64,000 bases of DNA from Escherichia coli (GTDB lineage: Bacteria; Pseudomonadota; Gammaproteobacteria; Enterobacterales; Enterobacteriaceae): NCBI RefSeq assembly GCF_044647545.1, contig NZ_CP172818.1; one strand, 5' to 3'. Shown in pieces: positions 58,789-59,739 of this stretch. Position 1 is the first letter of the stretch. The number at the start of each line of letters is the position of its first letter. Below the pieces are notes generated by a model. It did no database searches. It saw only the letters and a program-made list of their open reading frames with translations, and was not told where the DNA came from. Both the position numbers and the translations under genes were made by a program.

Positions 58789-59739
58789 ATGCTGAGCGCA
58801 TTTCAACTGGAAAATAACCGACTGACCCGGCTGGAAGTCGAAGAGTCACAACCCCTTGTAAATGCAGTATGGATTGATCTTGTCGAACCGGACGACGACG
58901 AGCGACTGCGCGTACAATCTGAACTTGGTCAGAGCCTGGCAACCCGCCCGGAACTGGAAGACATCGAAGCATCGGCACGTTTCTTTGAAGACGATGACGG
59001 CCTGCATATTCACTCCTTCTTCTTCTTTGAAGATGCGGAAGATCACGCCGGTAACTCCACTGTGGCATTTACCATCCGTGATGGTCGTCTGTTTACTCTG
59101 CGTGAGCGTGAACTGCCCGCTTTTCGTCTGTATCGTATGCGTGCCCGTAGCCAGTCGATGGTAGACGGTAACGCCTACGAGCTGCTGTTGGATCTGTTCG
59201 AAACTAAAATCGAACAGTTGGCAGATGAAATTGAAAATATCTACAGTGACCTGGAGCAGTTGAGCCGGGTAATTATGGAAGGGCATCAGGGCGATGAGTA
59301 CGACGAGGCGCTCTCCACGCTGGCGGAACTGGAAGATATCGGCTGGAAAGTTCGCCTGTGTCTGATGGATACCCAGCGTGCGCTCAACTTCCTGGTACGC
59401 AAGGCGCGTTTACCGGGTGGGCAACTGGAGCAGGCGCGTGAAATCCTGCGAGATATCGAATCCCTGCTGCCGCATAACGAATCCCTGTTCCAGAAGGTGA
59501 ACTTCCTGATGCAGGCGGCGATGGGCTTTATCAATATCGAGCAGAACCGCATCATCAAAATCTTCTCGGTGGTATCCGTCGTGTTCCTGCCGCCGACGCT
59601 GGTTGCTTCCAGCGATGGCATGAACTTTGAGTTTATGCCAGAACTGAAGTGGAGCTTCGGCTACCCAGGCGCGATTATCTTTATGATCCTCGCGGGCCTG
59701 GCACCGTATCTCTACTTTAAGCGGAAGAACTGGTTGTAA
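58789..59739 (+). CDS. corA: Mg2+/Co2+ transporter CorA
   Basis: 316-aa [40 protein letters not shown]... with two C-terminal TM helices; signature here reads S-D-G-M-N-F. Confidence 0.9.

Follow-up and report, generated by a model that had tools for sequence, protein, structure and literature searches.

The stretch of DNA analysed in this study (the window) comprises 64,000 nucleotides of an Escherichia coli genome assembly. Its gene order yigE-ysgD-corA-yigF is that of the E. coli corA locus, and the corA gene has the same length as in E. coli. The features of the gene that are relevant here are the following:

58789..59739, plus strand: corA coding sequence of 316 codons and a stop codon, recognised by CorA profile matches and by alignment to WP_000947159.1

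59614..59616, plus strand: codon 276, GAT (Asp), where the YGMNF signature has Tyr; equivalent in the alignment to Tyr311 of T. maritima CorA (TmCorA)

59617..59625, plus strand: intact GMN motif (Gly277-Met278-Asn279), encoded by GGC ATG AAC and aligned with the GMN of TmCorA

59635..59646, plus strand: intact MPEL motif (Met283-Leu286), of which Pro284 and Glu285 are equivalent to Pro319 and Glu320 of TmCorA, two residues located around Tyr311

The reading frame begins with the ATG at position 58789, and its stop codon ends at position 59739. The encoded protein agrees with wild-type E. coli CorA (WP_000947159.1; CORA_ECOLI) at 315 of the 316 residues, and its residues 1-257 are identical to the crystallised cytoplasmic domain of E. 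coli CorA (5n77). It scores 375.2 bits against the TIGR00383 equivalog model (cut-off 200.75) and 183.3 bits against PF01544 (cut-off 27). The GMN motif terminates the first transmembrane helix, and the MPEL motif of the periplasmic loop as well as both C-terminal transmembrane helices are present. What this protein lacks is the Tyr, or any other aromatic residue, directly before GMN, since residue 276 is Asp. The original prediction that the motif reads S-D-G-M-N-F was thereby borne out, positions 59611-59628 being AGC GAT GGC ATG AAC TTT in the frame of the gene. A Tyr before GMN is conserved in the CorA subgroup, and the wider GxN superfamily has no such requirement (PMC9276622). Judged from its sequence, the window gene is a full-length gene for the CorA Mg2+/Co2+ channel in which one signature residue is altered.

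The idea that Asp might be the reference state of E. coli CorA, which had been named beforehand as the one finding fatal to the prediction, does not apply. Codons 276-277 of corA are TAT GGC in K-12 and TAC GGG in the closest relatives of the window, and both pairs specify Tyr at position 276. The aromatic family consensus that had been quoted was likewise confirmed. With all other residues fixed, the Pfam scores for residue 276 were 192.2 for Y, 191.4 for F, 190.5 for W, 188.8 for L, 186.9 for H, 185.3 for C, 184.8 for N, 184.5 for S, 183.3 for D and 183.1 for E. Replacing Tyr by Asp thus costs 8.9 bits in the Pfam CorA model, and it costs 7.0 bits in TIGR00383. The acidic residues score lowest overall, and Asp has the lowest Pfam score among the single-nucleotide neighbours of Tyr276. 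Tyr precedes GMN in 132 of 134 proteins, a set made up of cluster members and homologue cluster representatives. The remaining two are the query and a deletion variant without the whole motif, and Tyr is therefore kept in all 132 motif-bearing homologues other than the query.

A similar picture emerged from a collection of about 15 billion proteins, in which the wild-type CorA protein is present on at least 1,000 contigs. The variants Y276F, H, N, S and C on the wild-type E. coli background were all absent from this collection, and Asp was the only single-nucleotide neighbour of Tyr276 that it contained. The absence of the F, H, N, S and C variants indicates strong purifying selection on this residue. 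When JGI metagenomes were scanned for functional copies with D, H or N at codon 276, a single unrelated His variant was all that turned up.

The closest complete genomes are roughly 90 phylogroup-F-like E. coli genomes, and the best-matching corA sequences comprise 86 records at 99% identity or more, for example those of FDAARGOS_497 and WP5-S18-ESBL-08. When the window was compared with an F-lineage genome, 2 differences were found in positions 43,098-56,500 and none in positions 59,740-64,000, and the identity over positions 1-42,961 was 99.914%. This near-identity outside corA places the source strain within or right beside the phylogroup-F-like clade. The neighbouring yigF gene (DUF2628; 59,782-60,204, minus strand) is split in the window into open reading frames of 73 and 61 codons, and the same pseudogene state with an internal stop is annotated in the F-lineage relatives. 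The corA gene itself differs from that of the closest genomes in one place only:

59614..59619, plus strand: three-base patch G59614, T59616 and C59619, the only corA differences from the closest genomes and identical to a remnant of corA that these genomes carry further downstream

Compared to the corA gene of two of these relatives (L001 and L003), the window has G instead of T at 59614, T instead of C at 59616 and C instead of G at 59619, and nothing else differs in 951 bases. The last of these changes converts GGG to GGC at codon 277 and is synonymous. For this lineage, the single change from TAT to GAT that had originally been proposed is therefore wrong, as three bases differ and the relatives have TAC GGG. 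The proposal of a single-base sequencing error fared no better; it was dismissed in view of the three clustered differences and of the exact protein being recorded in three other assemblies and in one NCBI genome. Deliberate engineering was also considered, because the conversion of TAC to GAT needs two changes, and it was rejected because the patch, including the synonymous change from GGG to GGC, equals a natural remnant.

In the relatives, a 1.56-kb island with two genes comes after corA (TAC GGG), and beyond it lie a 147-bp copy of the 3' end of corA (GAT GGC) and then yigF. The island genes belong to the DUF943 and YPO3983 families, and the 147-bp duplicate is annotated as an incomplete CorA-family pseudogene. 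In L001 and L003 this remnant reads AGC GAT GGC and matches the window at all three patch positions, whereas their functional copy reads AGC TAC GGG. The insert with DUF943 and YPO3983 genes and the 147-bp duplicate of the gene end is located at the corA 3' end in 1,352 of the 5,426 complete E. coli genomes. Frameshifts in the YPO3983-family gene are common among the relatives examined in this respect (L001, L003, L007, L008 and L013).

The remnants of other island lineages, namely L007, L008, L004 and the strain Santai, have TAT GGC. The GAT in the remnant is therefore a T-to-G change that is specific to this clade and affects a non-functional fragment. Indeed, only 90 of the 1,352 remnants have the GAT form and 1,262 are of other types. 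These numbers, together with the presence of TAT in both copies of L007 and L008, led us to reject the idea that an Asp-coding corA end comes with every island. We also searched the 5,426 complete E. coli genomes with a 32-mer that can match only with GATGGC. This sequence was found in 90 genomes, at a single place in each of them, and all 40 sampled matches were located inside the partial 'CorA family' pseudogene. As the exact F-type remnant is also carried by 90 genomes, it follows that a functional corA with GATGGC occurs in none of these 90. GATGGG and GACGGG, the other two codon pairs covered, had no matches among the 5,426 genomes.

The window itself has neither the island nor the second copy of the repeat. 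The features at the 3' end of its corA gene that bear on this are the following:

59593..59739, plus strand: segment matching the 147-bp direct repeat, present once in the window and twice in the relatives (functional 3' end and remnant)

59608..59639, plus strand: maximum extent of the inferred conversion tract, bounded by functional-state markers at 59607 and 59640

59713..59739, plus strand: interval inferred for the crossover that deleted the island, where 27 identical bp lie between the last functional-copy marker and the point at which the flanks diverge

The DNA missing from the window relative to L003 amounts to exactly 1,711 bp, which is the sum of one repeat (147 bp) and the island (1,564 bp), and no 25-mers of the island were found within the window. 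The loss of a single repeat together with the DNA between the copies, and the 27 identical bp at the junction, are what repeat-mediated deletion leaves behind. The remaining sequence is a mosaic: positions 59595-59607 are in the functional state, 59614-59619 in the remnant state and 59640-59712 again in the functional state, the last functional-copy-specific marker being at 59712, and from 59740 onwards the sequence is that of the remnant's flank on the yigF side. The patch also has the hallmarks of gene conversion. A donor identical to it exists in the lineage, namely the remnant of L001 and L003 and of 90 complete genomes. The changes are clustered and match the donor at 3 of 3 bases, and outside them the 951 bases of corA and 4.3 kb downstream are unaltered.

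We therefore consider it probable, though well short of certain, that recombination with the remnant deleted the island and left a conversion tract in corA, and that the resulting Tyr276Asp substitution strongly reduces or abolishes uptake through CorA. In this account, recombination between the two diverged 147-bp direct repeats would have removed the island through a crossover within 59713-59739, and the same or a linked event would have left a short remnant-derived tract of 6 to 32 bp in the working gene at 59614-59619. Recombination rather than point mutation is the most likely source of the change in this lineage. Three independent point mutations are not credible, because all three bases match the remnant in an otherwise unchanged gene, and a recombinational origin from the remnant would make selection unnecessary. 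Several observations do not fit smoothly. The tract is very short and discontinuous, and the working gene did not take over the remnant markers at 59595-59607 and 59640-59712. As these untransferred markers lie on both sides, a simple single crossover is insufficient, and a patch in combination with a crossover far to the right is required. In addition, the donor copy is no longer present in the window.

A different route to the same allele would start with TAT GGC in the working gene, acquired as an ordinary polymorphism or by a short import from some other E. coli allele, for example one of the K-12 type, to which an independent T-to-G change was then added, possibly under selection for the loss of CorA. 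TAT GGC is indeed the K-12 state, lone T-to-G changes at the same base are found on two other backgrounds (L005 and L006, see below), Asp is the sole single-nucleotide neighbour in the protein collection, and cobalt selects for corA disruption in the laboratory (bioRxiv 10.1101/143792). However, two separate events would have to fall within about 65 bp of a gene that is otherwise identical, while the remnant present in all of the nearest relatives provides the three bases at once. Moreover, no F-type corA allele with TAT GGC was found in the 5,426 complete genomes, where the best 61-mer match had 2 mismatches, and the single-mutation route thus lacks its starting point. We consider this scenario very unlikely.

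The source assembly is of uneven reliability, and its quality problems call for caution with both the corA allele and the deletion. The most conspicuous defect is a block at 56,990-57,655 in which a gene of the SAM hydrolase/halogenase family and the adjoining intergenic region are homopolymer-smeared and C-biased. This block shows 226 differences from L003, contains no intact open reading frame and extends exactly as far as the yigE stop codon. It had no match in any complete E. coli genome, and an exact look-up of an open reading frame inside it found nothing. It has the appearance of an artefact of assembly or consensus calling, and as corrupted sequence without a match in any genome the divergent block at 56.9-57.65 kb was discarded as a phylogenetic marker. 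A second corrupted block at about 42,960-43,100 is of low complexity and includes a poly-A stretch of some 55 bases, where a relative has about 570 bp between hemY and aslA, including the hypothetical gene WP_001260227.1. The gene for tRNA-Leu(CAG) at 38,912-38,997 has a 1-base deletion in a C-run at position 38,984 relative to a close relative; ARAGORN still calls the tRNA, and the deletion is typical of homopolymer errors in a long-read consensus. Relative to the F-lineage genome, the window further lacks 4 bases and about 21 bases at 16,612 and 16,949-16,955, in the ppiC-ilvC and rep-ppiC intergenic regions.

These defects raise the question of whether the allele is an artefact of assembly or consensus calling, with the true genome having wild-type corA (TAC GGG), the island and the remnant, and the two repeat copies having been merged wrongly. 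The three large differences that set the window apart from the F-lineage genome, i.e. the two blocks and the missing island, all concern accessory loci, which suggests a consensus problem. The two smeared blocks, in places where the relatives carry intact accessory genes, the failure of the first of them to match any complete genome and the deletion in the tRNA-Leu C-run all point in the same direction. Nevertheless, about 60 kb outside the blocks are nearly identical to the relatives, and the loss of exactly one repeat unit plus the island is as expected for real recombination between repeats. It should also be noted that functional-copy markers at 59640-59712 join the yigF flank directly, whereas a mixed pile-up of reads from the two copies would favour remnant alleles on the right-hand side, the reverse of the observed arrangement. 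Furthermore, the patch has 6 identical bases on one side and 20 on the other, which is too few for a path switch in a k-mer graph. We were unable to devise an artefact that would produce this mosaic. On balance, an artefact appears unlikely, although of the alternatives considered here it is the one that deserves the most weight.

The exact Y276D protein is recorded as WP_400165094.1 and is encoded by three ENA metagenome contigs, from ERZ15810255, ERZ1090862 and ERZ28656981. It is found on four different nucleotide backgrounds. The three contigs compare with their nearest genomes as follows:

L006, nearest to DA33135: 3 differences in 1,587 bases; TAC GGG to GAC GGG by a lone T-to-G change

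L005, nearest to ATCC 8739: 12 differences in 2,423 bases; TAT GGG to GAT GGG by a lone T-to-G change

L004 (ENA ERZ15810255), nearest to O157:H16 Santai: 4 differences in 3,951 bases, all within 61 bp (3,154-3,214) at the corA 3' end

The four differences in L004 include the T-to-G change that results in Tyr276Asp. L004 holds a second multi-site patch, and its own remnant, which has TAT, does not qualify as the donor. The lone T-to-G changes in two of the metagenome contigs, for which no remnant donor is known, weigh against the proposed origin from the remnant, as they show that such a donor is not always needed. The same A:T-to-C:G change has appeared at least three times, and the candidate explanations for this recurrence are a mutational hotspot, selection specifically for Asp, or a systematic miscall of G in contigs with 4-6x coverage. 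A single ancestor of the Asp alleles marked by 59655T was excluded, because this haplotype is common in ordinary corA genes (781 genomes), and a quasi-repeat GCGATGG about 95 bases upstream was judged too short to matter as a template for the T-to-G change. Another natural allele was encountered on an ENA contig encoding an E. coli-like CorA of 305 residues (P0020). It has an in-frame deletion of 11 residues that removes the whole filter motif, and it is expected to be non-functional.

The C-terminal 79 residues of the window CorA align without gaps to the membrane domain of TmCorA (PDB 3jcf). In this alignment, residue 276 of the E. coli protein corresponds to Tyr311 of TmCorA, Pro284 to Pro319, Glu285 to Glu320 and Tyr292 to Tyr327. 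In TmCorA, Glu320 is surrounded by a hydrophobic patch to which Tyr311 as well as Pro319 and Tyr327 of the adjacent monomer contribute; the side chain of Tyr311 is directed into this hydrophobic pocket and not into the pore, and the improved structure of TmCorA shows that the YGMNF tyrosine reinforces the hydrophobic interior of the loop (PMC3629940). Ion selection in CorA is attributed to a ring of Asn residues and to the Gly carbonyl (PMC3629940; PMC4579555). Asp276 would place a short, charged side chain beside Glu285, in the hydrophobic inter-subunit pocket that Pro284, Glu285 and Tyr292 of the adjacent subunit form and that supports the filter loop. With this change in all five subunits, CorA-mediated uptake of Mg2+, Co2+ and Ni2+ should fall sharply or cease. 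The cell would then rely on other importers of Mg2+, and its tolerance to cobalt and nickel would probably go up. No transport assay, other assay or structure of a CorA with Asp at this position (Y276D) was found in the literature. Szegedy and Maguire are said to have found that even conservative changes in the YGMNF motif of Salmonella CorA abolish transport.

The substitution could instead be real but tolerated or even adaptive, with a DGMNF CorA that still conducts Mg2+, perhaps with altered selectivity. In line with this, corA shows no decay elsewhere, the Asp allele occurs on several backgrounds in the absence of the other neighbours of codon 276, and the pore mouth of TmCorA is already strongly negative (PMC3629940). 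However, if the event was recent, there would have been no time for further decay. The low family-model scores of acidic residues, the strict conservation of Tyr among the motif-bearing homologues, the orientation of its side chain and the absence of the Asp allele from functional corA in the 5,426 complete genomes, for the codon pairs searched, all argue against tolerance, and we regard it as quite improbable. A stronger version of this idea would be that Tyr276Asp is a recurrent, favoured variant in which five Asp residues at the pore mouth alter selectivity, for instance by excluding Co2+ and Ni2+ while some Mg2+ conductance is kept. It would arise by repeated A:T-to-C:G transversion and spread from the reservoir of pseudogene remnants. 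This would explain why, of the six single-nucleotide neighbours, Asp alone is observed and on four nucleotide backgrounds, but we would give it only a slim chance of being correct.

E. coli is viable without CorA, and cobalt selects for its loss; indeed, corA mutations were found in all E. coli lines evolved in the presence of CoCl2 (bioRxiv 10.1101/143792). Nothing in the present data links the source strain to cobalt selection. If the allele is real, the strain may differ from its relatives in magnesium dependence and in cobalt or nickel tolerance, and a natural allele at such a highly constrained residue would be a ready-made probe for the role of the YGMNF tyrosine. A second implication of the favoured account, in which the patch derives from the remnant, concerns the island. 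Insertion of the island leaves behind a decaying duplicate of the gene end, and a later loss of the island can write this decay into the working gene. The gain and subsequent loss of an island would in that case not be neutral for the target gene. Altogether, we consider this a modestly interesting strain-level allele of a known channel, with an altered signature residue, a neat probable origin and a warning about data quality.

The window CorA resembles the Mg2+/Co2+/Ni2+ channel of E. coli and Salmonella in its locus, its length and its GMN and MPEL motifs, and differs from it in having Asp276 instead of Tyr. T. maritima CorA (PDB 3jcf, 4eeb, 2bbj and others) has the loop YGMNFEYMPEL, which can be set against the corresponding 11 residues of the window protein, but the two proteins share only about 40% identity in the membrane segment. 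With the cobalt-selected corA alleles, the window shares the affected gene and the predicted phenotype of reduced Co2+ uptake. However, those alleles are frameshifts and deletions that arose under a defined selection, whereas the window has a missense allele of putatively recombinational origin with no known selection. Conversion of a functional paralogue by a linked pseudogene is well known from human CYP21A1P, which converts CYP21A2, and from the silent pilS loci of Neisseria, which convert pilE. In each case a short tract from a nearby non-functional copy overwrites a working gene, as proposed for the window, and in conversions of the CYP21A1P/CYP21A2 type the tract likewise carries a damaging change into the working gene. 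Unlike in these systems, the donor proposed for the window is a 147-bp remnant left by the insertion of an island, the tract is only 6-32 bp long, and the donor would have been lost in the same deletion or in one linked to it.
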